NCBI GenBank assembly: GCA_000092065.1
Contig: CP000583.1
Source: Ostreococcus lucimarinus
Taxonomy: Eukaryota
DNA length: 64,000 nucleotides
Strand: one strand, 5' to 3'
The notes under the pieces were generated by a model. That model saw only the letters and a list, made by a program, of their open reading frames with translations. It was not told where the DNA came from and searched no databases. Below are positions 3,394 through 63,757 of this stretch, piece after piece (the stretch's first letter is position 1; each line of letters opens with the position of its first letter). The position numbers and the translations under genes are program-made.

Positions 3394-4266
3394 ATGGGCG
3401 GAGACTCGTTGGTCGTCACCCCCACGGGAGAGCTTCCGTTTCAGTGTGCGTGCGAACGACGCGCGAGCGCGCGGACGACGCGACGAGACGACGCGCGCGA
3501 CGCGCGCGCGAGAGACGGGATCGCGCGGCGACGCGCGACGCGAACGAGACGGTCGAAGGCGTTCGATCGCGAAGAGATCTTTGAATTTCAAAGTGGATTA
3601 TCGGAGACGCGGACGCGCGAGGCGCGCGTGTGATCGACGCGGTGACGAGGGAAGACGGGAGACTGACGATGAATCGATGAATGCGATGTTTCGCGAAACG
3701 CAGTCGAACTTAGAAAGCAGTGCGCGGCTGAACTGGTGTTGAAGAACCCCACGGGGGCGAAGCAGGCGTTCAAGGTGAAGACGACTTCGCCGAAGAAGTA
3801 TTGCGTCAAGCCAAACACTGGAATCGTCGAGCCCGGGGCCGAGATTAAGGTGACGGTGATGATGCAGGCGCATCGAGAGATGCCGGCGGACTTCAACGCG
3901 TGCAAGGATAAGTTTCTGATCCAATCGACGCCTAGCGGAGACTCTTCGGATATGACTGAGTTGTTCTCGCGACCGCCTACGAGTATCTCCGAGACTCGAC
4001 TTCGCGTGAAGTACGTCATGAGTGGTAAGACCGCGGCGATGGCCGAAGAGGTTACTCTTGCGCCGCCGCCGGCGAACGAGAGCGCGGAGCAGGAGCGGGC
4101 GCGCTTGCAGCGCGATGTGGCTCTCTTGCAGTCGCGAAACAAGGCGCTGGCGAACGACATGAATCTGATGATGAAGAAGGGCGGTAAGAGCATCGTTAAG
4201 GGTTTTACTTTGCTTCACATCTTACTCACGGCCATCTTGGCTTTCGTGCTCGGTCGTTATTTGTAA
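3394..4266 (+). CDS. VAP (VAMP-associated protein, MSP domain + coiled coil + C-terminal TM), two exons: 3394..3445 and 3704..4266
   Basis: Exon 1 is ATG at 3394 encoding MGGDSLVVTPTGELPFQ plus one nt, with donor GTGCGT at 3446. Exon 2 follows acceptor CAG at 3701-3703. The spliced product ...ELPFQFELRKQCAAELVLKNPTGAKQAFKVKTTSPKKYCVKPNTGIVEPG reproduces the plant VAP/MSP motif ELxFxFELxKQxxCxLxLxNxT...VAFKVKTTxPKKYCVRPN. Track ORF 3736.. begins with GTG, not ATG, and an in-frame stop at 3670 rules out a single exon. Confidence 0.85.
3446..3703 (+). other. intron (258 nt, GTGCGT...CAG, phase 1) of the VAP gene
   Basis: Removing it restores the contiguous MSP-domain motif. Track ORF 3446..3742 starts exactly at the donor GTG and is an artefact. 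Confidence 0.8.
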
Positions 4267-4387
4267 TCTCGAAATGTAGAAACGCCACTCAGAGTTGTGA
4301 CAATGAAAAAAGGTTTGCATTTATATTGAAACAAGCGCGCTTCTATGAATCAAAAGATAGAAGAAAAGATACACAAGACTGAAAAGA

Positions 4388-5938: not shown

Positions 5939-6919
5939 CGTCTCCCGTCGCCCCACCCCAGATCGTCGCTCGACCCACGCGCGTCGTCCGACTCCGCGCT
6001 CGCGTCGCGCGAGTCCTCCTCGCCGTTCGCGCCGCGCGTCCGCGCGCGTCGCGTTCGAAGACGTCCCCGCCGCGCCCACCATTTCCGCCCCCATCGCCCG
6101 CATCCCTCCGTCGCTCGCGCTTCCGACGTCCCCGATTCACCGTCGCGTCCTCGCGCGCCGTTCGGTCGCGCGCGCGTCGCGCTTGCCCTCGCCTATCGCG
6201 CGAGCACCGCGTCGATCCCACGAATTCGCGCGTCCGACGACGATTGAATGCGCGGGAAACCTCGTCGTCGTCGCGTCGCGTCGCGCGCGTCCGCGCCCGC
6301 GCGTCGCGGACCCGTCGTCGCGGCGACCGCGATCGTCGCGCGCCTATCGCGCGAGCCGCGAGGCGTCCGCGATCGGCGCGCGCGTCTCTGGCGCGCGCGC
6401 GCGTCGACCGCGGTCGGCACCCGTCGCGATCGTCGGACTGTTTGCCCATAGGAAGGGACGTCCCGACGACGACGCCGTCGTCGGCGCGCGCGCGGCGCGA
6501 CTCGCCGACGCGCGCGCGCCGATCGCCGCATGGAGCCGGCGACGCTGACGGTCCTCGCGATCTGCGCGCTCGCGGGCGCGAAACTGTCCGTCGGGGGGTA
6601 CCTCGCGTGGACGCATCGCGGCGCGTGTCGACGCGAGCGCGGCGGACGCGCGGGCGCGGACGCGCGCGAGGAGGACGCGCGCGAGGACGCGAAGGCGGCG
6701 TGATTCGACGCGCGGGGATCGATCGGGGGCGCGGTCGGTCGGAACGCGCGCGCGCGCGCGCGCGCGGTGTGTTCGCGCTGGGAGTTTCGAGGGACGGTTG
6801 AATTAATCTCGTCGTCGTCGGCGCCGCGAGAAGAGACGCGCGCGCGCGGCGCGAGCGACGGGAGACGATGGGATGGACGGGAAGTTTGAGCGATTTTGCT
6901 ACTAAACGCTCGCTAGAGG

Positions 6920-8898: not shown

Positions 8899-11800
8899 TC
8901 ACAGCTTGAGCCTATCGCGAATGAGTTCAGCGATGGAGTCCTCTCCGGGACCGATATCCTTGAAGGCGTCGAGAACTTCAACGATGACGTCTTGGCGGCG
9001 CTTCCACTTCGGGCTTCCCTTGTTCACACCCGTGGTGCTGAAGGTGCGCAAGACATCCACAGCGGCGGATGGCGTGAGCCCAGTCAAGAGAGTCGCGGCG
9101 AGTTTCACATCAGGTTCGGGTTTGTCTTCCGGCTTCTCCACGCCCGGGCGCGCGCCGAACCCGAGGCTCGCACGGCGAACAATGCTCACTTGTTCTTCAA
9201 TCTCCAATCCAGCATAAATAACCTTCGCAGTCTTGACGTTGCGGTTTGCAACGACGCGGAGGATTTCGACCCCGTTGTACACAACGCTTCGCAGGTAGTA
9301 CGGAAGGACGAATTCAGCGACACCAACCATGCGACCGGGCTCGGACATGTTAACCAAACCGATGGCGGCTTCGGCGTCTCCAAGGTTCTCCACCATAATG
9401 TCAATCAACGTCGCAGCACGGGTCAAATCGAGACCCATGAGCGCTTCAGCGCCTCGGGTATCTTTTGCGCGCCACAAAGCAGCTAGGGCTGTCGCCGCAG
9501 CTTCCACGTTGGCTGCTCCTTGAAGGATCAACGTTGCGGCGATCGGATCTTCGTCTTCAGAGAGCTCGAGGACAACCTCTTCGATTTCCTCCTTGGATGC
9601 GCTCTTTTCAAGTCGCTTTTGCAAACGAGATGCACGCTCATCGGTGACTTCGTTGTCCGGCTTTGACGCGGCTTCAGCTTGTTCGGCCGCGCGCTCCGCG
9701 GCGGCTGCAGCGTCCGCCTTTGCCTTTGCCTCAGCGGCTACGGCTTCCGCCTTTGCCTTGGCCTGTGCATCCGCCTTGGTCTTGGCCTGTGCATCCGCCT
9801 TTGCCTTGGCCTCTGCATCCGCCTTTGCCTTGGCCTCTGCATCCGCCTTTGCCTTGGCCTCTGCATCCGCCTTTGCCTTGGCCTCTGCCTCTGCCTTGGC
9901 GTCCGCCTTGGCTTTGGCCTCTGCCTCTGCCTTGGCTTTGGCCTCTGCCTCTGCCTTGGCCTTGGCGTCCGCCTTGGCTTTGGCCTCGGCATCCGCCTTT
10001 GCCTTGGCTTCAGCATCCGCCTTTGCCTTAGCCGCCTTCGCCTCTTCTTCAGCCTTACGCTTCGCTAATTCGGCTTCCTTTCGCTTCGCTTCCTCAGCAG
10101 CCTTCTGAGCTTTCGCAGCCTCCTCCTGCGCCTTGGCTTCCGCCTTGCGACGTTCTTCCGCCTCCTTCTCAGCGCGACGCTTCGCCTCGGCAGCCTCCTT
10201 CTCAGCTTGCTTTCTCTTCTCTTCTTGTTCCTTCTCGAGACGCTTCTTCTCCTCCTCAGCTCGTTTGGCAGCCGCCTTAGCGTCCTCGTCAGCTTTTTTC
10301 TTGGCGCGCGCAGCTTCCTCCTCAGCTTGCTTGGCCTTTGCCGCAGCTTCCTTCTCAGCTTGTTCTTTGGCGCGGCGCTGCTCTTCAGCTTGACGCTTCA
10401 AGTCTTCTGCTTGCTTTTTGGAGTCCTTCTTCGCTGCTTCAGCCGCCTTGCGACGGCTTTCCTCTTCGTCGAGGGCCAATTGCTTGCGTCTTTCCGAAGC
10501 AGCCACGCGCTCGGCCTCCGCCGCTGCAGTTGCAATTCGTAACTCCTCCGCGCGTTCAGCAGCTGCGACGGCTTCAAGACGACGGGATTCTTCGAAGCTG
10601 ATCGTCGAAGATTCTTTGAACAAAACGCCCTCAGTTTCGGTCTGGTTGAAAAATCTACGAGTGTCCTCGTCTTGTCTAGCGGCCCACTCTGAATCTCTCC
10701 TGCTCAAAGTTTCTGCGTTCCATGCAAGACGTCGAGCATCAATTTCAGCGATGATGGCGGCGAGCTCGGCTTCGAGCTGCTTGATACGCATCTCAGCCAC
10801 CTTTCTACGGGCGTCTTCCTCTTCACGTAGAGCTCGCTCGGCACGAACAGCTGCGTCAGCTTCCGCGCAGACAGCAGCGTGACGTCCATCTTCATTGTGA
10901 GTTCTAGTCTGCTCCTCCGTCACGGTGCGTTCAATGGACATCTGGGACTGAGCACGGCGCGCCTTAAACTCTTCGTAGTTGGCCGCTGCAGTCTTTTCGA
11001 GAGCTTGCAATTCGGGAATGAGGATTTGAAGTTGCGACTCCATCTGCGTAATAGTAGCGTTGAGATTCTGCATCATGTTGTCGATAGCAATAGGCGAAGC
11101 AGCGGCAAGTCGCCGCGCATCTTCCTTACGTTGTCTCTCCTCCATCATCTTCCTGAACTCGGCGCGACGAGCTTCCTCGGCGTTGAACAAAGCCTTGATC
11201 TTCGCCGCAAAGTCGTCAATCTCTTTCTGCTTGCGCTCGCACTGCGCGTCAAAATCAGCTCTTCGTTGTTTCTCAGCGGCCTCCTTTTGCGCGATGGCGT
11301 CGGCAGCTTGCTTACGGCGCATCTCCTCTTGAGTCTGTAAGAACTCCTCCTTGGCTTCAAGTTCCGCTCGGAACTTGTCGAGAATGTCCGGCAGTTCATC
11401 ACGGAATCGGTCGCGTCTAGCGTCCTCTTTCGCGATAATATCGTCGTCGATGGCCTTTTGATCGGCAATCTTCTTGTCCATCGCCTTGCGTCGGGCTTCT
11501 TCTTCGGCACGGCGCATGGCTTCGTCGCGCACAAGCTTCTTGAGCTCTTCACGCATTTGCAGCAGCTTGGCGTCTTCTCTCAGGCGCTCGGCCGCATCTT
11601 CCGCGCGAAGACGTTCATCTTCGGCTATAGCTTCTTCACGAGACTTTCTGAACTCCGTGACTCTTTGCGCTTCAGCCTCAAGTGCAGCCTTGGCGGCGGC
11701 ATCAGCTTCGCGTCGACGACGTTCCAAGTCGCGAATGAAATCGTCAATTTCTTGACGCTTTCTGGACACCTCATTCGCATGATCTTCACGTCTGCGTTCT

Positions 11801-14800
11801 TCCTGAGCGCGGAGATCTTCTTCAGCTCTTTGTTTTGCTTGGAGTTCAGCCTTGAAAGCTTCACGACGAGCAAGCTCGGAGGCCCACGCAGCGTCTTCGT
11901 CGGAGCGCATCTTTGTAATGCGTTCTTCCTCGGCGTTGCGACGAGCGTCTTCCTCGGCCATCTTCTTTCTCTCGGCTTCCGCAGCAGCACGAATAACATC
12001 TTCCGCTTCTTTAGCTCTAGCATCTTCTCTGGCGCGACGAGCTTGTTCTTCTGCGTCGCGACGCGCTTGTTCGCGATCCCAATCGGCACGGCGTTGATCT
12101 TCACGAGCTCGAGTGCGTGCCTCGTCTTCTTCGCGACGACGAAGCTCGTCAGCTGCGCGGGCTCGGCGATTCTCCTCCGCAACGATAGCACGCTCGAGCG
12201 CTTCTTTTCGCGTGCGACTCTCGCCTTCTTGCGCGCGACGTTTATTCTCGGCCTCCATACGTAACCGTTGCTCTTGTTGCTCCATGTCCCGCAACTTTTG
12301 CTCTGCGGCGACGCGACGGCGATTTTCAGCTTCCACTCTTTCGGCTTCCTTGCGCACAGCCTCGGCAGCAGCAGCATCGGCTTCACGTCGACGGCGCTCT
12401 TCCTCTTCACGCTTTCTACGCTCTGCTTCAGCAGCAGCCAAAAGGTCTTGCTTGGCTTGTTTACGTCTCGCTTCTTCCGCTTCACGTTGAAGCTGTTCCT
12501 TCGTCTTGAATTCATCCTTGTTGATGATGAAATCGATGCGACGAGAATCTTCAGAAGTGCGTCGCAGACCTTCTTGGGAATTGAAAATCAAATTCGCCTT
12601 GTCTTGTTCTTGCTGACGACGTGTTTCTTCTTCCTTCTTAGCCGCTTCTTCTCGAGCAAGTTCTTCTTCATGACGCTTATTTTCGGCACGACGTTGATCC
12701 TCTTCGGCACGAAGTCGGTTTTCAGCTTCTCGCGCAGCTCGAGCGGCATCGTCGTAAGCACGTCGACGCGCATCTTCGGCTTCTCTTTTGCGGCGTTCAG
12801 CATCCTCAGCGGCCTCAGCTTGCGCCTCGACACGAGCGCGCCGTTGATCTTCATCAGCAATTTTGCGCTTTTCAGCCTCTTCGAGGATCTTGATTTCTTC
12901 AAGTCGAGATTTGTGGTTGGCCTCAGCAGTGGCGATGCGTCGCACCTCTTCAGCGTTGATTCGAGCGATCTCTTGAGCATACTTTTGCCGTCGGTTTTCT
13001 TCCGTATCCTTAAGACGAATACCAAGCTGCTTGAACTCTTCAAGGGCTCGACGCTTAGCGGCGAGATCATCGTCCTCTGCCTTTCGCCGATCGCCTTCTG
13101 CCTTTGCAGCGGCTCGCATCGCAGCTTGCGCGTTCGCGGCGCGAATTTCTTCAGCCTTAAGCGCAGCTTCGATGTCTTGCTTTCTGCGATCAGCGTCATT
13201 TTCGGCAGCGATGCGTCGATCTTTTGTATCGCGTTCGAACTTGACAATCGCTTCCCGGAGAGCGTTGATGGCAGCTTCGGCTTCGCGGCGGCGCTTGTCC
13301 TCGTCGTCGCGACGCTTTGCCTCGTCATCCTCCATTTGTAGAAGCTTACGCGCAGCATCATCACGACGACGTTCCTCCGCAGCTTGACGATCGGCTTCTT
13401 CGCGTTCAAGACGCGCACGTTCATCATCAACTGCGCGTCTGATGTCTTCACGAGCCTGCTCTCGCCGGGTATCCTCCGTTTCCTGGAGACGCCTCTCTTC
13501 TTCAAGCTCACGCGCGTGTTCGTCATCCCACGCTCGTCGTCGAGCTTCTTCAGCGGAACGATCGGCGGCGAGAGCATCTCGCATACGTTGAATTCGAGCC
13601 TCAGCTTCCGCACGACGCCGATTTTCTTCATCTTGCAAACGAGCCTCCTTCTCCAAAAGAGATCGCGTCTCGGTGTCGAATCTTGCTCGAAGATCGGCCT
13701 CGAGTCCCTTCGCCTTCTCAAAGTTATTCTTCGCCAAGTTGATATCTTGTTCACCTTGCGCGCGGCGTAGTTGAATAGAGTTGCGAAGGGCATCGATTTC
13801 CTTTCGGCGGCGTTCGATTTCTTCGCGCAATTTCGCGACTGAAACGGGTGCGCCATCATCGCCACCCATGAGGTCCTCGAGGTCACCCTTTTGTGTCTCA
13901 GTGATGACCTTAGTCGTGATGATCTCTTCCGAGTAAATGGCTTCACATTCGTCGTACAGCCTATCGATCCTCTCCTTCTCGAGTCGACGACGTCTGTTCT
14001 CTTTACGCCGCTCGTTGTTTTCATCCTCGACAGCCTTTCGAAGAGCCTCCTCGGCTTCCTTGCGGCGTCTATCTTCCTCCTTGCGAAGTTTACGCTCGCG
14101 AGCATCGATTTCGTCGTGGTATTCCTCGTCCGGCAATTCTTCACGCCTACGGGCGAGACGCGTGTTCACCTTCTCTCGCGTCGTGATTATCGTCTTCTTC
14201 GTTCGTCCATCAAAGCTGTACGCTACCGATGTTGTGACGGTGCCTGCGGCGTCTCCGATGGATGCCGCGACTTCACCGAGCCTCACCGGCTTCATCTCAA
14301 GCAAGTGAATGAAGAGATAGACGATGAAAGCAATCGCAGCACCGATAATACTTGCGTACTCCATGTTCACTACGTACGTGTAGAACGCGCCAGAACCCGA
14401 GAAGGCACCGGCTTCGATCAAATAGGAAACACCAGAAATGAGTGAAAGCAAGTTGGGCGCCGCCGCGACGGCAATGGCAATCATGGCGCGTGGATTCACG
14501 CCCTTAAAGAACCAATATGGACCCTTAGTATCGCGCGTCTGCATTGCTCGTCGCGATAATTTGCCAGCACGCATAAGCCAGAAGTCACACAAAATCACAC
14601 CGAGCACGGGAGAGACTAACAACGAACCAACGCCAATGATCCACGAGGCAGCGGCGACGACTTGTTGCCACATCAACTGAGCCGGCGCAAAGAGGCCGAC
14701 AGCGCAGGTGATGATGAGCGCTGCTTGCTTGGACGAGATCGTACCACCAAGATAGTTCTTGGTCTTTGCCCACGGAAGCGAGAATTCTTGCATATACTCC

Positions 14801-15783
14801 TGCGGACCAACGACGTTTGCGGCACTGTTCGTCACGAGCGAGGCGATGGCAATGGACGCAAATAAAATCGGCTTCGGCGCTTGCGCCATGGCCGCGGCGA
14901 CGATAGCAAACAAACCGGACAGCAAGGGAAGCCAGAAAAACTGACCAATAGGTGCAGTTCTAGAGCCCTTGATGTGCGCTGTGTAATCTGGATACACGCT
15001 CGCGAGCGTCACCCAAACGCCCACCATAAGCCAAGCGTGCTTCCAGAACTCGTTCGGCAAGGCGCCCGGCATACCCGCGGAAATCAACGAACCGATCGCG
15101 GTCTGAGGAATACCTTGACGCAAAGTCCAAGCGATGAAACCTGCCACGAGCGCTAAGACGGTCTGACCAGACGCGAGAAGTCTCGATGAAGGGACGGTGC
15201 GCAAGGAAATTGCGAGCTGCACCACCCAAAACATCGCGTACGACATCGCTCGCACGACTACATCGCTTTCGATACTCGCGGCGATAAACGTCGTTTTGAA
15301 CAATCCGAACACCGCTTCGCCCCCGACCAAAGTTTGCACGGCGTAGAGCAAGAATCCAAGCGTCGCGCGACAGGCGTCGGTGAACTCCGCCCCCCAAATC
15401 CCGAAACTCGAACGCGCCAGGATCGGCATATTCAGTTCGTACTTCGCCGCGGGGTATCCGATTGCAGAGATAAATGGCATCGCCATCAAAGTACCGAGCG
15501 CTGTCGCCAAACCGAGTTCATACCAGAGCAACGGCGCGAGCGTGTGCAAGTTCCACCGAACGAAACCGTACGGCACCGAATACATCACCGCGCACGTCGC
15601 CAGCGCCGCCCACAGCGAGAGTTCCTTGCCCTTCTCGATCGCATTCTCCTCCGTCGTCGGCGGGATGATCAAATCCTCGTCCCCAGGCGCGACGATGAAC
15701 CCTTCGTCATCCTTATCGTCGTCGCCGGTTTGATCGGCGTACCCCAATCCGACGGCGTTCGCGCGCGTCGACGCCTCCCTCAT
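8899..15783 (-). CDS. giant multi-domain protein: N-terminal NCS1-family permease-like 12-TM domain, about 1,600-aa E/R/K-rich charged coiled coil (single alpha helix-like), (AKAKADAEA)n repeat, C-terminal helical domain
   Basis: Single stop-free track ORF 8899..16101 (2400 aa) with coding-like composition throughout. I choose ATG at 15783 (MREASTRANAVGLGYADQTGDDD...). The membrane domain contains NMPILARSSFGIWGA, reminiscent of the LARSSFGI(Y/F)GS motif of Fur4/Dal4-type NCS1 permeases. The middle is RRKEAEDARRRAYDD...-type E/R/K repeats. The KA repeat lies at about 9740-10030. Confidence 0.55.
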   Translation of the reverse strand: MREASTRANAVGLGYADQTGDDDKDDEGFIVAPGDEDLIIPPTTEENAIEKGKELSLWAALATCAVMYSVPYGFVRWNLHTLAPLLWYELGLATALGTLMAMPFISAIGYPAAKYELNMPILARSSFGIWGAEFTDACRATLGFLLYAVQTLVGGEAVFGLFKTTFIAASIESDVVVRAMSYAMFWVVQLAISLRTVPSSRLLASGQTVLALVAGFIAWTLRQGIPQTAIGSLISAGMPGALPNEFWKHAWLMVGVWVTLASVYPDYTAHIKGSRTAPIGQFFWLPLLSGLFAIVAAAMAQAPKPILFASIAIASLVTNSAANVVGPQEYMQEFSLPWAKTKNYLGGTISSKQAALIITCAVGLFAPAQLMWQQVVAAASWIIGVGSLLVSPVLGVILCDFWLMRAGKLSRRAMQTRDTKGPYWFFKGVNPRAMIAIAVAAAPNLLSLISGVSYLIEAGAFSGSGAFYTYVVNMEYASIIGAAIAFIVYLFIHLLEMKPVRLGEVAASIGDAAGTVTTSVAYSFDGRTKKTIITTREKVNTRLARRREELPDEEYHDEIDARERKLRKEEDRRRKEAEEALRKAVEDENNERRKENRRRRLEKERIDRLYDECEAIYSEEIITTKVITETQKGDLEDLMGGDDGAPVSVAKLREEIERRRKEIDALRNSIQLRRAQGEQDINLAKNNFEKAKGLEADLRARFDTETRSLLEKEARLQDEENRRRAEAEARIQRMRDALAADRSAEEARRRAWDDEHARELEEERRLQETEDTRREQAREDIRRAVDDERARLEREEADRQAAEERRRDDAARKLLQMEDDEAKRRDDEDKRRREAEAAINALREAIVKFERDTKDRRIAAENDADRRKQDIEAALKAEEIRAANAQAAMRAAAKAEGDRRKAEDDDLAAKRRALEEFKQLGIRLKDTEENRRQKYAQEIARINAEEVRRIATAEANHKSRLEEIKILEEAEKRKIADEDQRRARVEAQAEAAEDAERRKREAEDARRRAYDDAARAAREAENRLRAEEDQRRAENKRHEEELAREEAAKKEEETRRQQEQDKANLIFNSQEGLRRTSEDSRRIDFIINKDEFKTKEQLQREAEEARRKQAKQDLLAAAEAERRKREEEERRRREADAAAAEAVRKEAERVEAENRRRVAAEQKLRDMEQQEQRLRMEAENKRRAQEGESRTRKEALERAIVAEENRRARAADELRRREEDEARTRAREDQRRADWDREQARRDAEEQARRAREDARAKEAEDVIRAAAEAERKKMAEEDARRNAEEERITKMRSDEDAAWASELARREAFKAELQAKQRAEEDLRAQEERRREDHANEVSRKRQEIDDFIRDLERRRREADAAAKAALEAEAQRVTEFRKSREEAIAEDERLRAEDAAERLREDAKLLQMREELKKLVRDEAMRRAEEEARRKAMDKKIADQKAIDDDIIAKEDARRDRFRDELPDILDKFRAELEAKEEFLQTQEEMRRKQAADAIAQKEAAEKQRRADFDAQCERKQKEIDDFAAKIKALFNAEEARRAEFRKMMEERQRKEDARRLAAASPIAIDNMMQNLNATITQMESQLQILIPELQALEKTAAANYEEFKARRAQSQMSIERTVTEEQTRTHNEDGRHAAVCAEADAAVRAERALREEEDARRKVAEMRIKQLEAELAAIIAEIDARRLAWNAETLSRRDSEWAARQDEDTRRFFNQTETEGVLFKESSTISFEESRRLEAVAAAERAEELRIATAAAEAERVAASERRKQLALDEEESRRKAAEAAKKDSKKQAEDLKRQAEEQRRAKEQAEKEAAAKAKQAEEEAARAKKKADEDAKAAAKRAEEEKKRLEKEQEEKRKQAEKEAAEAKRRAEKEAEERRKAEAKAQEEAAKAQKAAEEAKRKEAELAKRKAEEEAKAAKAKADAEAKAKADAEAKAKADAKAKAEAEAKAKAEAEAKAKADAKAEAEAKAKADAEAKAKADAEAKAKADAEAKAKADAQAKTKADAQAKAKAEAVAAEAKAKADAAAAAERAAEQAEAASKPDNEVTDERASRLQKRLEKSASKEEIEEVVLELSEDEDPIAATLILQGAANVEAAATALAALWRAKDTRGAEALMGLDLTRAATLIDIMVENLGDAEAAIGLVNMSEPGRMVGVAEFVLPYYLRSVVYNGVEILRVVANRNVKTAKVIYAGLEIEEQVSIVRRASLGFGARPGVEKPEDKPEPDVKLAATLLTGLTPSAAVDVLRTFSTTGVNKGSPKWKRRQDVIVEVLDAFKDIGPGEDSIAELIRDRLKL
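9738..10030 (-). repeat. in-frame coding tandem repeat (27-nt period) encoding (A-K-A-K-A-D-A-E-A)n inside the giant protein
   Basis: Visible as gcctttgccttggcctctgcatccgcc units on the plus strand. Antisense track ORFs 9593..10108, 9663..10031 and 9679..10068 are artefacts of this repeat. Confidence 0.85.
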
Positions 15784-16171
15784 CCCCACGCCTCGCCTTC
15801 GCGTCCCACCCGCGCACGCGGCCTCCCACGCCAATCCACATCGTTTCTTTCCTCCACCGACCACGCGCGCGACGACCGTCGCGCCCCGCGCGCGCGCCCC
15901 GCCCCCCGCCGTTGCCGCATGCGATTGCCCAACGATTGATTTCGCAAATGTCCCGATCGACCCCGCCCGTCGCCCGCTCTCGCGCGCGCCGCTCCGCCGC
16001 TCCGCCGCCGCGCTCGCGGCGGCGCGCAGCGCCATTCGCGCTCGCGCTCGCGACGACTCGCGCGTCCGCGCCACGCACGTCCGCGCGCGCGGCGTTCTCA
16101 CGCGCGCGAAGAGCGAGCGAATTTAAGGGATCGTCGACGAAGATACGACGTCGCGGCGGTTCGCGCGCGTC

Positions 16172-19295: not shown

Positions 19296-19538
19296 GTCTT
19301 CGTTTGAATGCGAAAGTCATTCTTTCGGTGAAGCGCGCCGTCGTCTCGACGGCGACGCGCGGCACACGAGCTCGTTTGGTTGGTGATACACGCGGCATCT
19401 AATTTCTAGGCGGCGGAATAGCCAGCGCGAGCTAACATAACACGTTTTTGTAGTACGAACGTAGTTTTCTTCACAACGACGTCCCTCGCCGACGCGCCGA
19501 CTCTAATCGATCGCTAACCGATCTCTACCCACACAAAC

Positions 19539-19964
19539 CTACCCTCGCTCGTTCACCGACCGCGCGATATCCGCGATCGCCACGTCGAACAACTCACACC
19601 GCACCGGCATCTCCACCTCGTAAAACGGATTCTTCAGCGCGTAGTCGCAGTACGCCCGGTGCGTCCTTCGCAGCGTCCCGCTCGCGTCCGCGCTCCCTTT
19701 CGTCATCGTCACGAATATCTTCATCCCCGTCTCCGCTTGAAAGCAATACAAATCAAACGTATCGCACTCCAGGCTCTCTATCCCCGCGCACCCCGTCACC
19801 GGCGCCACCTTCCTCGAGATCGCGTGCAGCGAGTGCCACACGCTCGCCAGGCGCAGGCACGCGTTCGCGTCCAGCGTCGGCGCGTCCTCGCGCAGCGCGC
19901 GGTGATAGATCAGTCCCCCGGACTTGTTCACGAGCCACACCGCGAGGAGCTTCCCGGTCGCCAT
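19539..19964 (-). CDS. TRAPP complex subunit, sybindin-like family (Bet5/TRAPPC1-type)
   Basis: MATGKLLAVWLVNKSGGLIYHR...FQAETGMKIFVTMTKGS...YALKNPFYEVEMPVRCELFDVAIADI matches the longin-like Bet5/TRAPPC1 pattern. ATG at 19964 checked. The upstream part of track ORF 19539..20105 is GC-rich. Confidence 0.7.
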   Translation of the reverse strand: MATGKLLAVWLVNKSGGLIYHRALREDAPTLDANACLRLASVWHSLHAISRKVAPVTGCAGIESLECDTFDLYCFQAETGMKIFVTMTKGSADASGTLRRTHRAYCDYALKNPFYEVEMPVRCELFDVAIADIARSVNERG

Positions 19965-24587: not shown

Positions 24588-25243
24588 ATGGTGCGTGACC
24601 TCGAGCGAGCGACGAAAGACGACGCGAGCGCGAACGACGCGCGCGCCGGTGGCGCGCGACGGCCGGGACGCGCGTCGGGCGGACGCGCGCGGACGGAACG
24701 ACCGCGGACGAGACGCGGCGATCGCGACGACGCGCGCGCGCGTTCGAGGGCGGTCGCGCGCGATGCGATCGTCGCGCGCGCGGTCGGCGCGCGCGGATGA
24801 AGGGTGGATATCGTGAATTCGACGCCGGCGCGGCGCGCGGCGGCGACGGCGGCGGTGGGAGGGCGACGGGCGGGCGATGGGGGGGCGCGGCGCAAGCCCT
24901 AGAGTCGACGACGGCGCGAACGCGACGCGCGGAGGACTGACCGAGACGTTTTATCGACGCAGCCGTCCAACAAGACTTTCAAGGTGAAGAAGATTTTGGG
25001 GAAGAAGCAAAAGCAAAACCGCCCGCTTCCCCAATGGATCCGCATGCGCACGGGTAACACCATTCGGTACGTACGCGTTTAGGTTTTTTCGCGCGACGAG
25101 CGCCGACGAGTCGCGCGAACGACGCGATCGATGACGCGATTTTGACGACGACGACGCGCGAGTACTGACGATGATGATGTGTTCGTACGCGCAGCTACAA
25201 CGCGAAGCGTCGACACTGGAGACGCACCAAGCTCAACTTGTAA
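24588..25243 (+). CDS. RPL39: 60S ribosomal protein L39e, three exons: 24588..24590 (ATG only), 24963..25066, 25195..25243
   Basis: ATG is followed directly by donor GTGCGT at 24591. Acceptor ...cgacgcag precedes 24963. Exon 2 encodes [35 protein letters not shown] plus 2 nt, with donor GTACGT at 25067. Acceptor gcgcag precedes 25195. Exon 3 encodes (R)[15 protein letters not shown] followed by stop TAA at 25241-25243. The spliced 51-aa product matches eL39 nearly residue for residue. No track ORF covers it. Confidence 0.85.
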
Positions 25244-33381: not shown

Positions 33382-34704
33382 TCACTCGTTCTTGAAAGAG
33401 CTGTCGTAGGACGCGGCGGGTTCCAATTTCTTCGCCTCCACGAGCTTGCGGACGGCTTTCATGAAATCGTCCTGAACGCAGTAATCGCGGTCGTCGCGAA
33501 TGGCGAACATTCCCGCCTCCGTGCACACGTTGCGCATGTCGGCGGCGTTGAATTCTTCGGCAATCTTGGAGATAGACTCGTAATCGATTTCACCCTCTTT
33601 GTTCAACTTTTGCGCGTGAATTTTCAAAACCTCCACGCGACCTTGCTCGTTCGGAAGCGGGATTTCAATCTTTCTGTCGAGACGACCAGGGCGCATCAAC
33701 GCCGGGTCCAACACATCGGGTCTGTTCGTCGCCATGATCATCTTGACCTTGCCAAGAACGTCGAAACCATCGAGCTGATTCAAAAGTTCCATGAGTGTAC
33801 GTTGAATCTCGCGATCGGCCGACGTGCCTTCGGAAAAGCGCTTGCCACCGATGGCGTCGATTTCGTCCATGAAGATGATGCACGGCTCGTGGTCCCGAGC
33901 GTAACCGAACATCTCTCTGATCAATCTCGCGGACTCGCCGATATACTTATCCACTATAGCGCTAGAAACAATCTTCAAAAAGTTTGCGTCGATGTTACTC
34001 GCGATCGCCTTGGCGAGGAGCGTCTTCCCCGTCCCTGGCGGTCCGTAGAGCAATACGCCCTTCGGCGGCGCGATGCCCACGCGCACAAAAAGTTCGGGAT
34101 TCATCAACGGCAACTCGATCGACTCTCTAAGCGCTCGAATCTGCTCCCCGAGCCCACCGATAGAGCTATAGTCCACGTGCCCCGTGGACTCGCTGAGCAT
34201 GTTAAACACTAACGGATCCACCTCTCGCGGCAGCGCGCGCATGATGGTTAACGTCGTCATGTCGAGCGTCACCCGCGTCCCGTTCACTAGCTTGCTCTTA
34301 TCGAGCTTCGTTCTGCACCCAACGACGTATCTCGGCCCCGAGCTCGCCTTCACGATGAATCTGTCTTCGTCCAACTGTCTCAAAACCTCCCCGATAATCT
34401 GCCCCATCGACTGCAACGCCTTCAAATCGTCCTCCGTCTTGTCAAACCTCTTTCGAATGTCAATCAACTCGAACCTCGACGCTCGCACTCTCGCATCCAA
34501 TTCCTACGTCATCGCGCGTCATCACGACAATAAACCGTCAGTCACTCGCTCGAATACGACGCCTCGCACCACCGTTCGCGTCCACGAACCATCCTTCGGT
34601 CTCTCCGTCGCGCGCGATCTCACCTTGTGCTGCAGCAACAACCCGGCGTACTTCCTCAACGCCTCCTTCCGCGGATCCGGCGGCGGCGCCCGCGGCGTCG
34701 TCAT
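33382..34704 (-). CDS. PSMC6: 26S proteasome regulatory subunit Rpt4 (PSMC6/S10B, AAA-ATPase), two exons: 34624..34704 and 33382..34503
   Basis: Exon 1 is ATG 34704 ([27 protein letters not shown]) with donor GTGAGA at 34623. Acceptor TAG at 34504-34506. Exon 2 is [44 protein letters not shown]...[12 protein letters not shown]...Walker A GPPGTGKT... The spliced N-terminus aligns gap-free with human PSMC6 ([52 protein letters not shown]). Exon 2 alone (track ORF 33382..34500) starts with TTG preceded by an in-frame stop. Confidence 0.9.
34504..34623 (-). other. intron (120 nt, GTGAGA...TAG, phase 0) of the Rpt4 gene
   Basis: Donor and acceptor are placed by exact alignment to PSMC6 across the junction. 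Confidence 0.8.
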
Positions 34705-38571: not shown

Positions 38572-39017
38572 GCGCGCGACCGCGTCCCGCGCGCGTCCGA
38601 CGGTGCCGCGGCGCGCGTCCCGCGCGTCGCGTCCCGCCCGCGCGCGCGCCGATCGATCGTTCGATCGCGCGGTCGTTCGATCTCGATCGCTCGATCTCGA
38701 TCGGCGTCTCGGGACGCGCGTCTCGGCCGTCTCGGCCGTCTCGGACGCCGCACACGGCGACGACGCGCGCGGCGACGACGCTCGAGGTGCGCGCGCGACG
38801 ACGACGACGACGACGACGACGCGAGCGCGGGAAGAAAGACGCGCGCGACGCGCGCGATGGAGAAGACGCGACGACGCGACGCGAGACGCGCGCGACGGGC
38901 GAGACGCGAACGCGCGAGGGGAACGACCCCAACGGTCGAGGGTCGACGCGCGACGCGACGCGACGCGACGCGCGATCGGTGACTGACGGCGCGCGATCGC
39001 GACAGAAATCGCGCGCG

Positions 39018-39587
39018 ATGGGGAAGAACCTGATCGTGTCGATCCTGCGCGTCGTGCCGCTGGCGCTGTACCTGCGGTCGGCGGCGTGTAAGTTTGCGAT
39101 TCCGATCGCGGGGTGCGACGGGGCGCTGTGCCCGGTGGCGCTGGGGAAACCGGGTGATTGCGCGCCGACGGCGAACACGGCGGAGCAATACGCGTGGTGT
39201 GAACACGCGTGGACGCCGTGGGCGAACGGGCTGATCGCGCGCGTGCCCGGGGTTTCGAGCGTGGCGCCGAAGATTCGATGCTCCAAGGCGGATGGGTACG
39301 AATTCGCGAAAATCATCGGCGCGCTCGAGGTGCTGGGATACCTGGCGCTGTGGACGACGCCGGCGCGGGGGGCGTTTCTGCTCACAGCCATCATGGCGGG
39401 AGCGATTCACTTTCACATGACGTTCCTGAAGGATCCGATCGGGAAGCTGACGATTCAGTTTGCGCTGTTATTCGCGTCGGCGACCATCGCGATGCTGACG
39501 ACGGAGAAGAAGGCGAAGAAGAAAGCGACGACGAAGTCAAAGTCGACTCGACGCACGACTTCATCGAGAAAGACGAAGCGAGGATAA
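39018..39587 (+). CDS. DoxX-family-like small 4-TM membrane protein with Lys-rich C-terminal tail
   Basis: Coding-like portion of track ORF 38787..39587, from ATG 39018 (MGKNLIVSILRVVPLALYL...EFAKIIGALEVLGYLALW...AGAIHFHMTF...TTEKKAKKKATTKSKSTRR). Similar layout to the gene at 61091..61591. Confidence 0.4.
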   Translation: MGKNLIVSILRVVPLALYLRSAACKFAIPIAGCDGALCPVALGKPGDCAPTANTAEQYAWCEHAWTPWANGLIARVPGVSSVAPKIRCSKADGYEFAKIIGALEVLGYLALWTTPARGAFLLTAIMAGAIHFHMTFLKDPIGKLTIQFALLFASATIAMLTTEKKAKKKATTKSKSTRRTTSSRKTKRG

Positions 39588-51111: not shown

Positions 51112-51592
51112 CTCGCGTCGCGTCGCGCGCGCGTCGTCGTCGTCGCTCGCGTTCGCTCGCGTCGCGCGCGTCTCGCGCGTCTCGCGTCGCGTCGCTCGCG
51201 CGCGCGTCGCGGCGTCGCGATGCGCGGCGCGCGCGTCGCGGCGTCGCCGACGGACGACGGCGGTTACGCCGCGTCACCGGACTGTTTGCCTGTGCGGACA
51301 GACGGATATGGACATACAGTGCGCCGACTGTTTCGCGCGCGCGTCCGCGACGTCCGCGACGCGGGCGCGACGCAGACGTCGGCGCGCGCGCGCGGGGTCG
51401 CACCGTCGCGCGAACGCGCGCGCGGTTTTATCCGCATCGGTTCGCGCGCGCGCGGCGCGCGAAGGCGCGTCGCAGAGGCGCGGAGACGGCGATCGCCGTC
51501 GCCCGCGCGGGACGCGCATCGCGCGGCGCGAACGAAGCGACGACGCCGGCGACGACGCGATCTCGACGGACGCGCGCGCGGAAGCGCGAACG

Positions 51593-53440: not shown

Positions 53441-53483
53441 ACGACATGTGTGTAATGTACAATTGTGCTAATGTACGGCTATA

Positions 53484-54368: not shown

Positions 54369-54566
54369 CGTCGTCGTCGTCGTCGTCGCGCGTCGTCGTG
54401 CGTCGTCGCGCGTCGTCGCGCGTCGCCGTCGCCGCGTCGCCGTAGGCGCCGCGCGCGGTGTGATTATCGACGAATCGCGAATGCGCGGTGCGCGCGGTCT
54501 GCGCGGCACACCGCGCCGACGCCGCGACTCGACCGATCGACCGAGCGAGCGACCGAGACATAAACC

Positions 54567-56253
54567 ATGGGCGTGTGTGGATCATCGCCCGCGGTGCCGG
54601 TGCGTCGCGCGACGCGAACGCGAACGACGCGAACGACGCGTGTGGAATAATCGTGGCGTCGAATTGCCACGTTGAATTCCCGCGCGCGATCGAGCGCGCG
54701 ACCGCGATGGGAACGCGCGATGAGGCGATGAGAACGGTGATAGGGGCGTGAAGAGCGAGACGTGAATCGAGACTGACCGCGCGCGTGATCGTTGACGCGT
54801 TTCGCGCGAGTAGTATGAGGAAACGAATAAGCGGACGGGGAAGCAGAATCCCGTGGGGAAAACCGCGCGACCGTCGAGCGTGCTCGGACGGGAAACGCCG
54901 GATGTGAATGATTTATTTGAGTTCCACGAAGAACTTGGACGCGGTCAGTTCGGGACGACGTTCTTGGTGACAGAAAAGGCGACCGGTCGTAAGTGCGCGT
55001 GCAAGGCTATCTCTAAGCGTCAATTGTCGAACGCCGAGGACATTGAAGAGGTGAGAAATGAAGTGAGAATTCTTCATCACCTCGCCGGTCACGAGCACGT
55101 CGTCGAACTCGTCGGTGCGTATGAAGGAAGCAAGCACGTGTACATCGTCATGGAACTCTTGTCCGGCGGCGAATTGTTCGATCGCATTGTTGAAAAGGGC
55201 AAGTACAGTGAAAAGGACGCGTCCGAGACGGTGCGCACCATCGTTGAAACTGTTCAATACTGCCACGAGTTGAGCGTCATGCACCGTGATTTGAAGCCTG
55301 AAAATTTTGTCTTGAAGAATAAGGATAAGAATTCTCCGGTCTGCGCTATCGATTTCGGTTTATCTACGTTCTTCCGCGAGAACCAAGTCTTCATGGATCT
55401 TGTCGGGAGCCCGTACTACGTTGCGCCGGAAGTATTGCGTCGTCGATACTCAAACGAATCCGACGTCTGGTCATGCGGTATCATCCTTTACATTCTCTTG
55501 TCTGGTGTCCCGCCGTTCTGGGCTCAAACCGAGCAAGGAATTTTCGACGCCATCTTGCAAGGCGCACTGGATCTCGAGAGCGACCCATGGCCGAAGATCA
55601 GTGCGGAGGCGAAAGAACTCATCTCTGGCATGCTCCAAGCGGACCCGAAGAAGCGCCTGACGGCGGCTCAAGTGTTGAAACACCCGTGGGTGGCTGATCC
55701 GAACGTTGCGCCGAAGACAAAGCTAGACAACGTCGTGTTCAAGCGGTTCAAGAACTTTGCTGGTATTTCCAAGTTCAAGAGGATGGGTTTGATGGCGATG
55801 GCTCGCACCATGACTGCGGACGAAGTCGCTGGCTTGAGAGAACTCTTCAAGAGCTTCGATACCGACAACTCTGGTACGATTTCCATCGACGAACTTCGCC
55901 AAGGCTTGAAACTCAAGTCTGCGGGTCCCGCAATGGAGGAACTCCGCACACTCATGAAGACTATTGACGTCGATGGCAGCGGCGAACTTGACTACGAAGA
56001 GTTCATTGCCGCTACGCTCGCGCAATCGAGACAAGCGTCCGACGCCGCTGTGAGACGCGCTTTTGATTACTTTGATACCGATGGGGATGGTTCCATCACG
56101 GTGCAAGAATTTGAACAAGCCTTCAAAAAGATGTCTGATGTTGAGCGTGCCAACTTGGGAGACATTGGCGAGTTGATTGCCAGCGCCGACACTGACGGTG
56201 ATGGTTGCATCGATTTCAACGAGTTTATGGCTATGATGAAAGCGGACAAGTAG
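54567..56253 (+). CDS. CDPK: calcium-dependent protein kinase (CDPK: Ser/Thr kinase, autoinhibitory junction, four EF-hands); probable exons 54567..54599 and about 54847..56253
   Basis: Kinase domain LGRGQFGTTFLV...HRDLKPENF...DFGLS...SPYYVAPE. Four EF-hand loops (DTDNSGTISIDE, DVDGSGELDYEE, DTDGDGSITVQE, DTDGDGCIDFNE). Track ORF 54853.. starts on GTG, with an in-frame stop at 54811 and no ATG between them. An upstream micro-exon ATG 54567 (MGVCGSSPAVP) ends at donor GTGCGT (54600). It carries a classic N-myristoylation/palmitoylation motif. The acceptor is one of several in-frame AGs between 54813 and 54846, the best being gcag|AAT at 54843-54846. Confidence 0.85.
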
Positions 56254-56459
56254 GCTGCGCGCGCTTCGCTGGGCCGTATTTAATACTGCCGGTACTTTAT
56301 TTTCAATCTCTCGTTTTTCATATAATTAACAAGAAGGTAACGTAAATGAGAAACGAAGCGCTCCGCGCTCGTCGCTCGCAACCAACGCGCAAACATTTGC
56401 CATCGCGTACTATCGTAGACGAACGGCGACGAAACCATCGTAACAGAAGGCGCGACTGA

Positions 56460-57057
56460 TTAAACGCCCACCTTGACGAGCTCCATCTCGAAAATGAGCA
56501 CGGAGTCCGGCTTGATGAGCGGCGTAGGGGATGATTTACCGTACGCCAGCTCGGACGGAATTACGAGTTCCCACTTATCGCCCTCCTTCATGAGCTGCAT
56601 CGCCTCGGTCCAGCCACTGATGACTTGATTCGGCGCGAACGTCGTCGGTTGACCGCGCTTGTACGACGAATCAAACTCCTCGCCCTGGATATTCTTCCCA
56701 GAGTAGTGACACGAGCACGGCGTCGACTTCGAGGGCGAGGGCCCACCCTCCGGTCCAGATTTCAAAACGCGATACTGCAACCCCGACGGCAGCTCGACCA
56801 CGCCCGGTTTCAACTTATTGGCCTGCGTCGCGCGACGAACCATCGTCGTCAGTCCACATCGCGTCGTCGGACGCGTCCGGTTCGTCGAGTCATCGAACCA
56901 TCCCATCATCGCGCGCGCGCATTCGTTCGCCGCGCACCGCGAGAAACGCCGCGCCGTCGCTCTTCGCGTCCGCCATGCCGCCGACGAACGCGCAACCGAT
57001 CAACGCGATCACCGCCAGGACGAGCGCGAGCGTCGTCGATCGTCGCCCGCGAGCCAT
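56460..57057 (-). CDS. FKBP-type peptidyl-prolyl isomerase, Mip/FkpA-like, with signal peptide; two exons: 56938..57057 and 56460..56822
   Basis: Exon 1 is ATG 57057 (MARGRRSTTLALVLAVIALIGCAFVGGMADAKSDGAAFLA), a signal peptide ending at donor GTGCGC. Exon 2, after acceptor CAG, is ANKLKPGVVELPSGLQYRVLKSG...FKBP domain (FDSSYKRGQPTTF...VISGWTEAMQLMKEGDKWELVIPSELAYG...LIFEMELVKV). The junction ...AAFLA|ANKLKPGVVELPSGLQY reproduces the Mip/FkpA linker FLxxNKxKPGVxxLPSGLQYKV. Track ORF 56460..56909 begins on an internal ATG-ATG. Exon 2 coordinates are derived from the ORF frame and may be off by one. Confidence 0.8.
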
Positions 57058-57084
57058 CGCGGAGTGCGGATTCGCCGATCGCGC

Positions 57085-57150: not shown

Positions 57151-57657
57151 GCGTCGGCCGAATCCGATCGCGACGCGACGATTCGATTCGTCACACTGGT
57201 CGAGACGCGCGTCGAGACGCGCGCGCGCGCTCGACGCGCGCGCGGCACACGACGACGACGACGCGCGCGGCGCGCGACGAGTGATTTTTAGAGAAAGCTC
57301 GCGCGCGCGACGCGACGCGACGCGACGAGGGCGCGGCGGGGATGACGGCGAAGAAACGCGCGGAGGAACGCGCGAGGCGAGGGGAGACGAAGCGCTGCGG
57401 CAACGCGCCGTGCGGGAGCGAGGTGGGACGATCGATCGGCGCGATCGCGGACGACGGGACTGACGATGATTGGTAATCGTGCGCGCAGGAGACGCCGATG
57501 TGGCGTAAGGGGTGGATCGATGATGATGGGGTTGAGGTGGACTTGTGTAACGCGTGCGGTGCGCGGCGCGCGCGCGACGAGACGAAGACGACGCGAAAGC
57601 GCGCGGACGACGATGCGCGTGACACGCGACTGACGCGCGCGCGCTTGAATCGTAGGT

Positions 57658-59313: not shown

Positions 59314-59346
59314 AAGAAATGTGCGCGTGAATTTTACTACACTCTA

Positions 59347-61591: not shown

Positions 61592-61768
61592 GGTCGCGTC
61601 GAGGAGTGACGCGGCGGTCGAAGCGAGCGCGCGAGCGCGTGATTCGACCGATTGGCGCGTTTGAAGCGTTGGATTGGACAAACAACAGCCGCGTGTGTTG
61701 GGTTATTAAAATCGTCTCGAGCGTGTCTTCGCTTGGTGCGACGCGATTTCGACGCCATGAATGTGCGC

Positions 61769-63757
61769 TCACGAAGAGCGGCGGACGCGGCGCTTGGACG
61801 GGGTCTTCTTCTCGTCTTCGGCCGGCGGCTCGTTTTCGTCGCCCTCGTTTTCGTCGTCGTCGTCCTCCTTGACGTCGTCGTCCTTCTTCTTCTTCGCGTC
61901 CTTGGCTTGTTGCGCCTTCTTCGACTTTTGCTCGTCGGTCGGGCGCATGAACTTGACGGCGATGAAGAGAATGATCAACGCGATGGGGAGAGTGACGAAA
62001 GTGAGGTAGTAGTGGAGGGCGTTGGTGGCAAAGTGCGACATGGCATCTTGCGCGAAGACGCCGACGGGGCCCGGGATTTTGTCGGCGATGGACTCGAAGA
62101 AACGGAGACCGATCGGAGCCGAGGGCTCGCGAGCGGCTTCGGCGTCAGCCTTGGCCTTCGCTTCTTGTTCACGAGCTTCGACGGCAGAGTTCACCGCTTC
62201 AGCCTTGGCCTCAAACGCATCCTTACCGAAAGCCTTGACGGCGGCGATGTCTTCGTCGGCGACAATGTTGTCGAGCACTAAGCCCTTGGACATGGTCCAG
62301 ACTTCGACACCAACGGCACCAATCTTACCGATGTTCGCCAATGGAGTCTTGTCTTCGTAGAACTTCGGGTTCGCGATTTGCTTCGGCTTCCATTCGCCCT
62401 TGTACTTCGGGTTGTCGATCATCGGCGCGTACCACTTGCCCTTGTACTCCGGGTTGGGCTTTTCCGGACGAGTCCACTCGCCGCAACCAGAAACTTCGGC
62501 GCACGCCGGGTTGGGCACCATCGGAGCTTCCCAGTCACCGTCTTCTTCGACGTCCCAGTCTTCGGGGATGACGGCTTCCTCGTCTTCGACTTGGGCCGGT
62601 TCGTCGTCGAGCCAGTCATCCGGCTTGACGGCGTCCATGTCCGGAATCATCGCCGGAGCGTCTTCGTCCCAGTCCGCCGGCTTCTTCGCCTTGGGATCCG
62701 GAATCTTGTCTTCATCGACCCAATCTTCGGGCTTCTTGTCATCGGGATCGTCAATCTCCTTGGGCGGGTTGAACGGCGGCTCAAAGTCCTCGAACAGAGA
62801 GCCCGTGCGTTCCTCCTTGCCGTCGATGGAGACGGTGTACGTGTTATCCTCGTTGACCTCCAAAGAGTAGAGATGCACCTTCTCGTCGACCGGCATGCGC
62901 GGCGGGTTCTTCAAGTGCTTCTCTTCGACTTCGCCGTCGAGCGGGGACTTGTGCTTGAAGATGACGTGCACCTTGTTCGTACCGCCGCACTTATCCGGAC
63001 CAAACATCACCGTGTACGGCGTGTCTCCGTCGAACGAATCCGCGTCGTACTCGTCGGCGTTCAAGTACTTCAAGTACGCACCACCGCATTCCAACCCTTC
63101 TTCTTGGCGCGCTTCGAACTGAAGCGCGAAACCGTTGGACGGATCGAGCGGGGAAGACAACGCCTTGGACACGCCGTAGTGCTGCGCCTCCTTCGGAAGG
63201 TACAACCCGTAGTCATCCGTATCCTTCGCCTTCTTCGCGATCGCCTTACCTACATCGCGCGAAACCATCGATCGTTCGAGTCAGTCACGCATCGCGACGC
63301 GCGTTTCGTCCCATCCACCGCCGTCGTCCCCCCGTCGTCGATTCCCGTCCCGTCGCCGTCGCTCGCGCTCGCGCGATCTCGGATCTCCGTCTCGCCTCGC
63401 GCGTCCCCCTCCCGCCCCTCCGCGCGCGCCTCGACGCCCGCTCGACCCTCTCCCGCGCCTCCGCGCGTCTTCCCGCGCCCGCGCGTCCGTCCTCGCGCGC
63501 GCGTCCCGATCGTTCGCGCGTCATCCCTCGCGCCTCCGCCATCGAATCTCGTCGAAGCCGCCGTCCATCGCGATGGGCGTCTTCTTGCGCGATCGTCGCG
63601 TCGCGCGTCGCGCACCCGTGTACTTGGCCTCGCTCGAGCGCGTCCATCCCGCGAGCGCGCCGTCGTCGAACGTCTCCGCGAGCTTGAGCGCGCTCGCGGG
63701 CGCGCAGAGCGCGCCGAGGGCGACCGCGCACGCGACGCGCGTCGCGCGCGTCGGCAT
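61769..63757 (-). CDS. CNX: calnexin (ER lectin chaperone; signal peptide, lectin domain, P-domain repeats, TM, acidic/Lys tail); two exons: 63616..63757 and 61769..63249
   Basis: Exon 2 (track ORF 61769..63268) has [12 protein letters not shown], the P-domain repeats [14 protein letters not shown] / [10 protein letters not shown] and [25 protein letters not shown], a TM ([17 protein letters not shown]) and a KKKD-rich tail. Exon 1 is ATG 63757 ([47 protein letters not shown] plus g). Donor GTGCGC at 63615; acceptor TAG at 63250-63252. The spliced junction [20 protein letters not shown] parallels human AKYDGKWEV...GDKGLVL. Alternative start ATG 63799. Confidence 0.85.
63250..63615 (-). other. 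intron (366 nt, GTGCGC...TAG, phase 1) of the calnexin gene
   Basis: It coincides exactly with junk track ORF 63250..63615 (-). That ORF starts on the donor GTG and ends on the acceptor TAG. Confidence 0.75.

Follow-up and report, generated by a model that had tools for sequence, protein, structure and literature searches.

Short GC-rich GT-AG introns in a 64-kb window of Ostreococcus lucimarinus nuclear DNA: shared splice signals and local gene-model corrections

Results

The window analyzed in this study is a 64-kb stretch of nuclear DNA from Ostreococcus lucimarinus CCE9901, and it contains ten introns, nine of them in coding sequences (CDS) and one a candidate in a 5' untranslated region (UTR), distributed over eight intron-bearing genes. 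These elements are almost certainly canonical U2-type GT-AG spliceosomal introns of the O. lucimarinus "outside chromosome 2" class. Their signals are already known (Irimia & Roy 2008), and since that study and Lanier et al. 2008 both describe such introns, our finding correctly rediscovers what had been published. Its new content is confined to local gene-model corrections and to the demonstration that the branch motif ACTGAC is the best guide to introns in this DNA.

All nine CDS introns have GT...AG termini and their removal restores an open, conserved reading frame. They average 193 nucleotides (nt; n = 9, 1,736 nt summed) and are carried by seven of the ~34 genes of the window, and lengths across introns range from 66 to 372 nt. 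Seven of the ten donors read GTGCG[TC], the remaining three being GTGAGA, GTACGT and GTGGGA. An earlier reading of the same DNA from its letters (the original prediction) had placed six introns to the base, in VAP, RPL39 (two), Rpt4, FKBP and calnexin, and a probable seventh in CDPK. The termini of the six were as given and splicing at them produces complete proteins, and both the tally of the seven donors (GTGCGT three times, GTGCGC twice, GTGAGA and GTACGT once each) and the CAG or TAG acceptors agree with the sequence. The reported length range of 114–372 nt was right at its upper end, but the shortest of those introns measures 115 nt, not 114. The introns had also been called stereotyped, which is correct, but the truly stereotyped element is ACTGAC, which had been missed.

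Exactly one ACTGAC is present in each of the ten introns, most often in the form GACTGACG. The second A of the motif is located 22–37 nt before the 3' splice site, or 19 nt in the 5'UTR intron. The motif is not enriched in the window overall (20 copies on both strands versus ~18 expected). The nine CDS introns, read on their sense strand, amount to 1.36% of the sequence searched and yet hold nine of those 20 copies (binomial p = 2.3e-12). If the first CAG or TAG at least ~15 nt past the branch A is taken as the 3' splice site, all acceptors are recovered correctly, the TAG of CDPK among them, and only a vestigial T-patch stands in place of a polypyrimidine tract. The window has a GC content of 0.59 and an observed/expected CpG ratio of 1.6, the introns 0.68 and 2.0, respectively, and intron interiors are unconstrained CpG-rich, low-complexity DNA that resembles intergenic spacers.

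A scan of the window for a donor of the form GT[GA]NG[TCA] (GTRNG) with ACTGAC and a first YAG 15–41 nt downstream gave 12 matches, compared with 3.6 +/- 1.9 in Markov-3 simulations. Ten of the matches are introns, including three that the original prediction had left unplaced (57423-57488, 57559-57655 and 38787-39005). The other two, with ACTGAC at 44016 (minus strand) inside the continuous UBR4 open reading frame (ORF) and at 36359 (minus strand) antisense to the SDR gene, were rejected as chance occurrences, a number consistent with the 3.6 expected.

The CDS introns are strongly biased toward the 5' ends of their genes, with offsets from the start of 3, 33, 52, 81, 107, 120, 142, 151 and 174 nt, and the tenth intron is in a 5'UTR. 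By arithmetic from the coordinates, the probability that all nine would lie in the first 175 nt of the CDS under uniform placement is ~2e-6. Such a 5' bias is an established feature of intron-poor genomes. The earlier statement that many first exons are tiny and encode no more than the initiator or a signal or acylation peptide fits CDPK (MGVCGSSPAVP) and RPL39, whose first coding exon is a bare ATG. It fits FKBP and calnexin in part, but neither VAP, whose first exon already includes the beginning of the MSP domain, nor Rpt4, whose first exon has 58 codons.

Transcript evidence came from public assemblies (Logan and JGI/IMG contigs), in which Logan contigs were taken as RNA-derived because they lack introns. 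Excision was seen for the Rpt4, FKBP and CDPK introns in contigs that are 99.7–100% identical to the window and have exactly the predicted junctions, in support of the claim that these regions are removed from mRNA as spliceosomal introns. The intron of Rpt4, a 26S proteasome ATPase, spans 34504..34623 on the minus strand (120 nt, phase 0, aag/GTGAGA, ACTGAC at 34542, TAG; slashes mark junctions here and below). In six RNA contigs (L007-L012; 99.7–100% identical) position 34624 is joined to 34503, giving CAGCACAAG/GAATTGGAT, and the spliced product of 431 amino acids (aa), with LLQHK/ELDARV at its junction, equals the ORF of MMETSP Transcript_2427 and was found in transcript-derived sources only. 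The intron of the FkpA/Mip-like FKBP gene (56823..56937, minus strand; 115 nt, phase 0, GTGCGC, ACTGAC at 56853, CAG) is missing from contigs L001 and L003, which join 56822 to 56938 and read CTTATTGGC/CGCGAGAAAC on the plus strand. The FKBP product is identical to XP_001416984.1, its junction reading AAFLA/ANKLKPGV, and the Pfam FKBP_N domain at residues 29-59 extends across that junction at 40/41.

The CDPK intron occupies 54600..54813 on the plus strand (214 nt, phase 0, GTGCGT, ACTGAC at 54772, TAG) after 11 codons. Its donor at 54600 had been recognized in the original prediction, whose acceptor near 54846 was not upheld, as six Logan RNA contigs (L001-L006) join 54599 to 54814, reading GTGCCG/TATGAGG. 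On the basis of those junctions the acceptor is the TAG at 54813 and not the CAG at 54846 of the NCBI model (54600-54846). The rule of the first YAG after ACTGAC predicts this transcript-verified acceptor, that the annotation has wrong.

Several of the RNA-derived contigs cover more than one gene. Contigs L001 and L003 (window 54519-57065) fuse the CDPK mRNA with the spliced mRNA of its convergent neighbor FKBP, implying that the 3' ends of the two overlap. The 5.2-kb contig L007 (window 37797-33339) contains spliced Rpt4 together with the GHMP kinase, SDR and DUF3067 genes. Overlapping transcription units are known in the compact Ostreococcus genome (Lanier 2008, PMC2367439).

Both introns of RPL39 are absent in two cDNA-like JGI contigs from a close relative (L013 and L014). 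Intron 1 (24591..24962, plus strand; 372 nt, GTGCGT, ACTGAC at 24936, CAG) is directly 3' of the ATG at 24588-24590, and intron 2 (25067..25194, plus strand) is 128 nt, phase 2, with GTACGT, ACTGAC at 25164 and CAG. The spliced 51-aa product, with junction M/PSNKTF, is identical to XP_001416689.1. The same protein is encoded by L013 and L014, which read ATG/CCGTCCAAC, that is, ATG/CCGTCC, and are also missing intron 2. Pfam Ribosomal_L39 matched across the intron 2 junction over model positions 1-42 of 42.

For the other introns the evidence is indirect (protein domains and comparative data). Intron 1 of VAP, an MSP-domain protein, spans 3446..3703 on the plus strand (258 nt, phase 1, agt/GTGCGT, ACTGAC at 3662, CAG) and follows coding exon 1 (3394-3445, plus strand). 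The spliced 204-aa product is identical to XP_001416683.1, its junction reads GELPFQ/FELRK, and Pfam Motile_Sperm (residues 6-107) crosses that junction at residue 17/18. An environmental variant (L037) differs by 12.6% in the intron versus ~2-3% in the exons, so that the intron diverges ~5x faster, with donor, branch and acceptor unchanged. A search for a VAP transcript by way of the neighboring beta-amylase gene yielded none, returning only genomic metagenome contigs and one RNA contig that stops at 4149. Within this intron there is an AT-richer palindrome, CTTTGAATTTCAAAG (window 3577-3591), contained in a 55-nt segment (3574-3628) that is unchanged in the variant differing by 12.6% elsewhere in the intron, an observation that is not statistically compelling; Rfam found nothing in the palindrome region.

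The calnexin intron (63250..63615, minus strand; 366 nt, phase 1 as G/GT, GTGCGC, ACTGAC at 63285, TAG) follows coding exon 1 (63616-63757, minus strand), which encodes the signal peptide and the start of the lectin domain. Its junction, EAKYTG/KAIAKK, fits the consensus KYxGK as KYTG/K, and in an alignment with ten calnexins both W38 and the intron-split G48 are invariant, and Pfam Calreticulin (residues 36-377) crosses the junction. In an ortholog with 77% aa identity (L034), the same codon is interrupted in the same phase by an intron of ~154 nt that is unalignable with ours and has a GTGCGG donor, ACTGAC and TAG. The 540-aa product is absent from the protein collection, in which no cluster member is longer than the 499-aa genomic ORF. 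The NCBI model for this locus (window 61769-63757) is partial, a truncated product of 364 aa with exon 1 missing.

The original prediction had suggested five 5' ends at which further micro-exons might be found, and the PHD gene was the one that had them. This GATA/PHD-finger gene (exon 1 57342-57422 and exon 2 57489-57558, plus strand) has a new intron 1 at 57423..57488 (plus strand; 66 nt, phase 0, gag/GTGGGA, ACTGAC at 57459, CAG). Exon 1 encodes MTAKKRAEERARRGETKRCGNAPCGSE, which provides the first cysteine pair of the GATA finger, and Pfam GATA matched residues 24-56 across the junction with 33.8 bits (cutoff 26.8). The public model lacks intron 1 and, over 57342-57558, starts in exon 2, without the first zinc-finger exon and thus half of the GATA finger. 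Intron 2 (57559..57655, plus strand; 97 nt, phase 1, GTGCGC, ACTGAC at 57629, TAG) gives, from the ATG at 57498, a product identical to XP_001416698.1. An ortholog contig from another Ostreococcus lineage, L031, has the same exon 1 (..CGNAACGTK) followed at the same position and phase by an intron with a GTGGGC donor, ACTGAC and TAG, and it also retains the position and phase of intron 2. Its own intron 2 (500-605) has ATTGAC for ACTGAC and a T-rich tract, showing that the genus does not keep the branch motif strictly constant.

No intron was found in USB1 (210 aa) or GHMP kinase (358 aa), whose single-exon products equal the NCBI models, and between 37797 and 34623 the RNA contig L007 follows the genomic sequence without a break. 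The window scan found no intron signature upstream of CPOX or PSAT. Between PSAT and RPSA, itself a single-exon gene, is a small single-exon gene (19539-19960, minus strand) that appears TRAPP/sybindin-like from its translation (MATGKLLAVWLVNKSGGLIYH...). As this gene fills the RPSA-PSAT gap, the open frame upstream of the PSAT ATG (19454-20158) is spurious.

The candidate 5'UTR intron is at 38787..39005 on the plus strand (219 nt, gag/GTGCGC, GTGACTGACGG at 38982, CAG), and is proposed as such because its 3' end is only 12 nt upstream of the start codon of a DoxX-like membrane protein gene (189 aa, 39018-39587, plus strand). The same arrangement of donor, ACTGAC and YAG directly precedes the DoxX-like ATG of O. 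tauri (L032) and that of a further clade (L033). In the NCBI model the gene is a 266-aa "partial" CDS, identical to ORF 38787..39587, that starts with the GTG of the donor and continues across the intron. Population variants of the gene retrieved in the transcript search were too similar to the window to be informative.

Several other features of the window lie outside its introns. An ORF of 2,400 aa (8899-16101, minus strand) has an N-terminal NCS1-type permease domain (Pfam Transp_cyt_pur, aa 198-573) and an E/R/K/A-rich tail of ~1,800 aa that looks like a coiled coil and ends in (AEAKAKAD)n, where the DNA (9746-10033) is a tandem repeat of 24-nt units. The strong AT skew at 10-14 kb is due to this gene, whose long permease-tail ORF is also present on metagenome contigs (2,362 aa). 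The AEAKAKAD repeat (24-nt unit, ~21 copies) recurs at 27379-27870 on the plus strand, a region of GC 0.67 with marked purine skew, within ORF 26177-28432, which is on the opposite strand, is otherwise unrelated to the permease ORF and had no Pfam match. The minus strand at 39682-51111 carries a 3,809-aa intronless UBR4/BIG-like E3 ligase gene (Pfam E3_UbLigase_R4, zf-UBR), the center of which has a GC content of 0.46-0.50, well under the window mean.

Discussion

Three of the ORFs called in this window begin on intron donors. ORF 63250..63615 (minus strand, 121 aa, GTG start) is exactly the calnexin intron and ORF 3446..3742 (plus strand, 98 aa, GTG start) begins on the VAP donor, both as the original prediction had pointed out, and ORF 38787..39587, which begins on the donor of the 5'UTR intron, is a third such case. 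Introns are called as GTG-initiated ORFs because their CpG-rich, low-complexity interiors stay open in some frame, and the earlier view that such ORFs appear only because GTG is accepted as a start in GC-rich DNA that encodes no protein was right. We give practically no credence to the opposite reading, in which the splice signals are chance motifs in GC-rich sequence and these three ORFs are real coding sequence, even though GTGCG[TC] (131 copies) and ACTGAC (20 copies) occur in the window at about the expected frequency overall and NCBI annotates 38787..39587 as a partial CDS. RNA contigs without the regions refute it for Rpt4, FKBP and CDPK, and the placement of ACTGAC (p = 2e-12), the restoration of conserved domains only once introns are excised and the ~5-fold faster evolution of the VAP intron all argue against it. 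For the third ORF, the homologs of the DoxX-like 189-aa protein are 160-200 aa long and start at the ATG.

It is likewise exceedingly improbable that these introns are copies of a mobile family such as the introner elements of Micromonas, a related Mamiellophyceae picoalga whose introns also look stereotyped (Worden et al. 2009; Simmons et al. 2015, PMC4540971). The window introns do have donors and branch motifs in common, and BLAST detected weak intron-intron matches, for instance 77% over 99 nt between RPL39 intron 1 and the VAP intron. However, in all-against-all BLAST those matches are multiple, overlapping, on both strands and of (GACGCG)n-type low complexity, and they also fall on intergenic DNA and UTRs (51111-51246, 18000-18130 and 6260-6690). 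Micromonas introners are repeated and mutually alignable, whereas the window introns share only splice signals and low-complexity composition, have no colinear full-length similarity, vary from 66 to 372 nt and are unalignable even between same-position orthologs. The remaining alternative concerns CDPK, in which both TAG 54813 and CAG 54846 might be used to give isoforms of 490 and 479 aa. The reading frame is kept in both products and both are present in databases, but we consider alternative splicing very unlikely. The 479-aa product is restricted to annotation-derived sources (NCBI, UniRef, EukProt) and the 490-aa product to contig-derived ones (JGI/IMG, Logan; no contig >2.2 kb), ten RNA contigs encode the 490-aa product, of which the six that were examined all use position 54813, and CAG 54846 sits 70 nt from the branch A, compared with 19–37 nt in all other introns. 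A U12-type assignment was rejected, as none of the ten donors or branch regions fits (G/A)TATCCTT and TCCTTAAC. An Rfam scan of the whole window at gathering thresholds gave no matches, and when the three longest introns were scanned with relaxed thresholds the sole match was Hammerhead_1 (E = 0.35, 16.8 bits versus a 34-bit threshold); algal small nucleolar RNAs that are hosted in introns and absent from Rfam could nonetheless be present.

Several points weigh against assignment of all ten elements to spliceosomal introns. The Logan contigs were classed as RNA-derived solely by their absence of introns, and the contigs lacking the RPL39 introns belong to a relative (98% and 87% identity) rather than to CCE9901. 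Transcript support is limited to Rpt4, FKBP, CDPK and RPL39 and was not obtained for the VAP, calnexin, two GATA/PHD and 5'UTR introns, and searches of metagenome contigs with exact and degenerate calnexin exon-junction patterns were both empty. In addition, contig L005 extends into the FKBP intron, which could be due to unspliced pre-mRNA or antisense read-through. We infer splicing of the introns in VAP, calnexin, GATA/PHD and the 5'UTR, where intron position and phase are conserved in orthologs (L031, L034) while intron sequence and length diverge.

Assignment to the published class of canonical introns, which is characteristic of this highly compacted genome with few introns, is supported by comparison with the same organism. 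Among expressed sequence tag (EST)-confirmed O. lucimarinus introns outside chromosome 2, ACTGAC is present in 87.2% and GACTGACG in 66.5%, and a strong 5' splice-site signal of 4.8 bits goes with an unusual consensus, GTGCGTG (Irimia & Roy 2008, PMC2483917). Mean intron size is 188 bp, and 265 of 1,670 EST clusters (~16%) have introns (Lanier et al. 2008, PMC2367439). The window introns have in common with that class (Irimia & Roy 2008, PLoS Genet 4:e1000148; genome Palenik et al. 2007) the GT-AG termini, GTGCGT(G), (G)ACTGAC(G) near the 3' end, a GC-rich interior, low density and a mean of ~190 nt. There is no difference of substance, as the donor variants GTGGGA, GTGAGA and GTACGT are inside the published spread. 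The window lies on a contig of 982,987 bp, for which EukProt indices P001326-P001627, when set against the per-chromosome gene counts in Table 1 of Lanier 2008, point to chromosome 3, an assignment drawn from numbering rather than from a mapped coordinate.

Introns of chromosome 2, the low-GC "outlier" region, belong to the same genome and use the same spliceosome as those of the window. They are said in the Ostreococcus genome papers to be short and AT-rich. Their signals are weak, with GTRNGT donors and only 4.6% sharing any one branch hexamer, and their density is much higher (Irimia & Roy 2008, PMC2483917, "The Peculiar Case of Ostreococcus"). The window introns show none of these traits. 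They have more in common with Saccharomyces and hemiascomycete introns (GTATGT...TACTAAC...YAG), which also occur in an intron-poor genome with near-invariant 5' splice and branch sites, a strong 5' bias, enrichment in ribosomal-protein genes and selection of the first AG after the branch. The two differ in having GTGCGT versus GTATGT, ACTGAC versus ACTAAC and GC-rich versus AT-rich introns, and the resemblance is convergent, not homologous.

From established spliceosome biology and by analogy with yeast, we infer that the window introns are removed by ordinary major-spliceosome splicing with tightly constrained, yeast-like signals. The 5' splice site GTGCG(T/C), or its variants GTGAGA, GTACGT and GTGGGA, would be recognized by U1 and U6. 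Potentially, ACUGAC pairs with the U2 GUAGUA box with a G.U wobble replacing the yeast A-U pair, in which case the bulged second A of (G)ACTGAC(G) would be the branch nucleotide, analogous to that of yeast UACUAAC. The first YAG downstream, ~19–37 nt past the branch A, would then be chosen as the 3' splice site. Possibly, the Ostreococcus U1 small nuclear RNA, which the window does not include, has a putative compensating change opposite the C at donor position +4.

Conclusions

Our analyses demonstrate that in four of the eight intron-bearing genes of the window (CDPK, calnexin, GATA/PHD and DoxX-like) the public CCE9901 model conflicts with transcript or comparative evidence. The corrections to those four are useful only for Ostreococcus annotation work, and they have little scientific weight because the intron signals of the species were characterized in 2008. 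The results also indicate that conserved protein motifs alone are sufficient for a reader without tools to place introns to the base, and that prokaryote-style ORF tracks on GC-rich eukaryotic DNA yield ORFs that are introns. The reliable anchor for introns in this genome is ACTGAC, not the donor, as evidenced by its having predicted both the CDPK acceptor and the three unplaced introns. If the window is representative, for which we consider the chances about even, the reference annotation is in error for a sizeable proportion of first exons, signal peptides and 5'UTR introns, and a "GTRNG ... ACTGAC ... first YAG" model would repair such gene models genome-wide.

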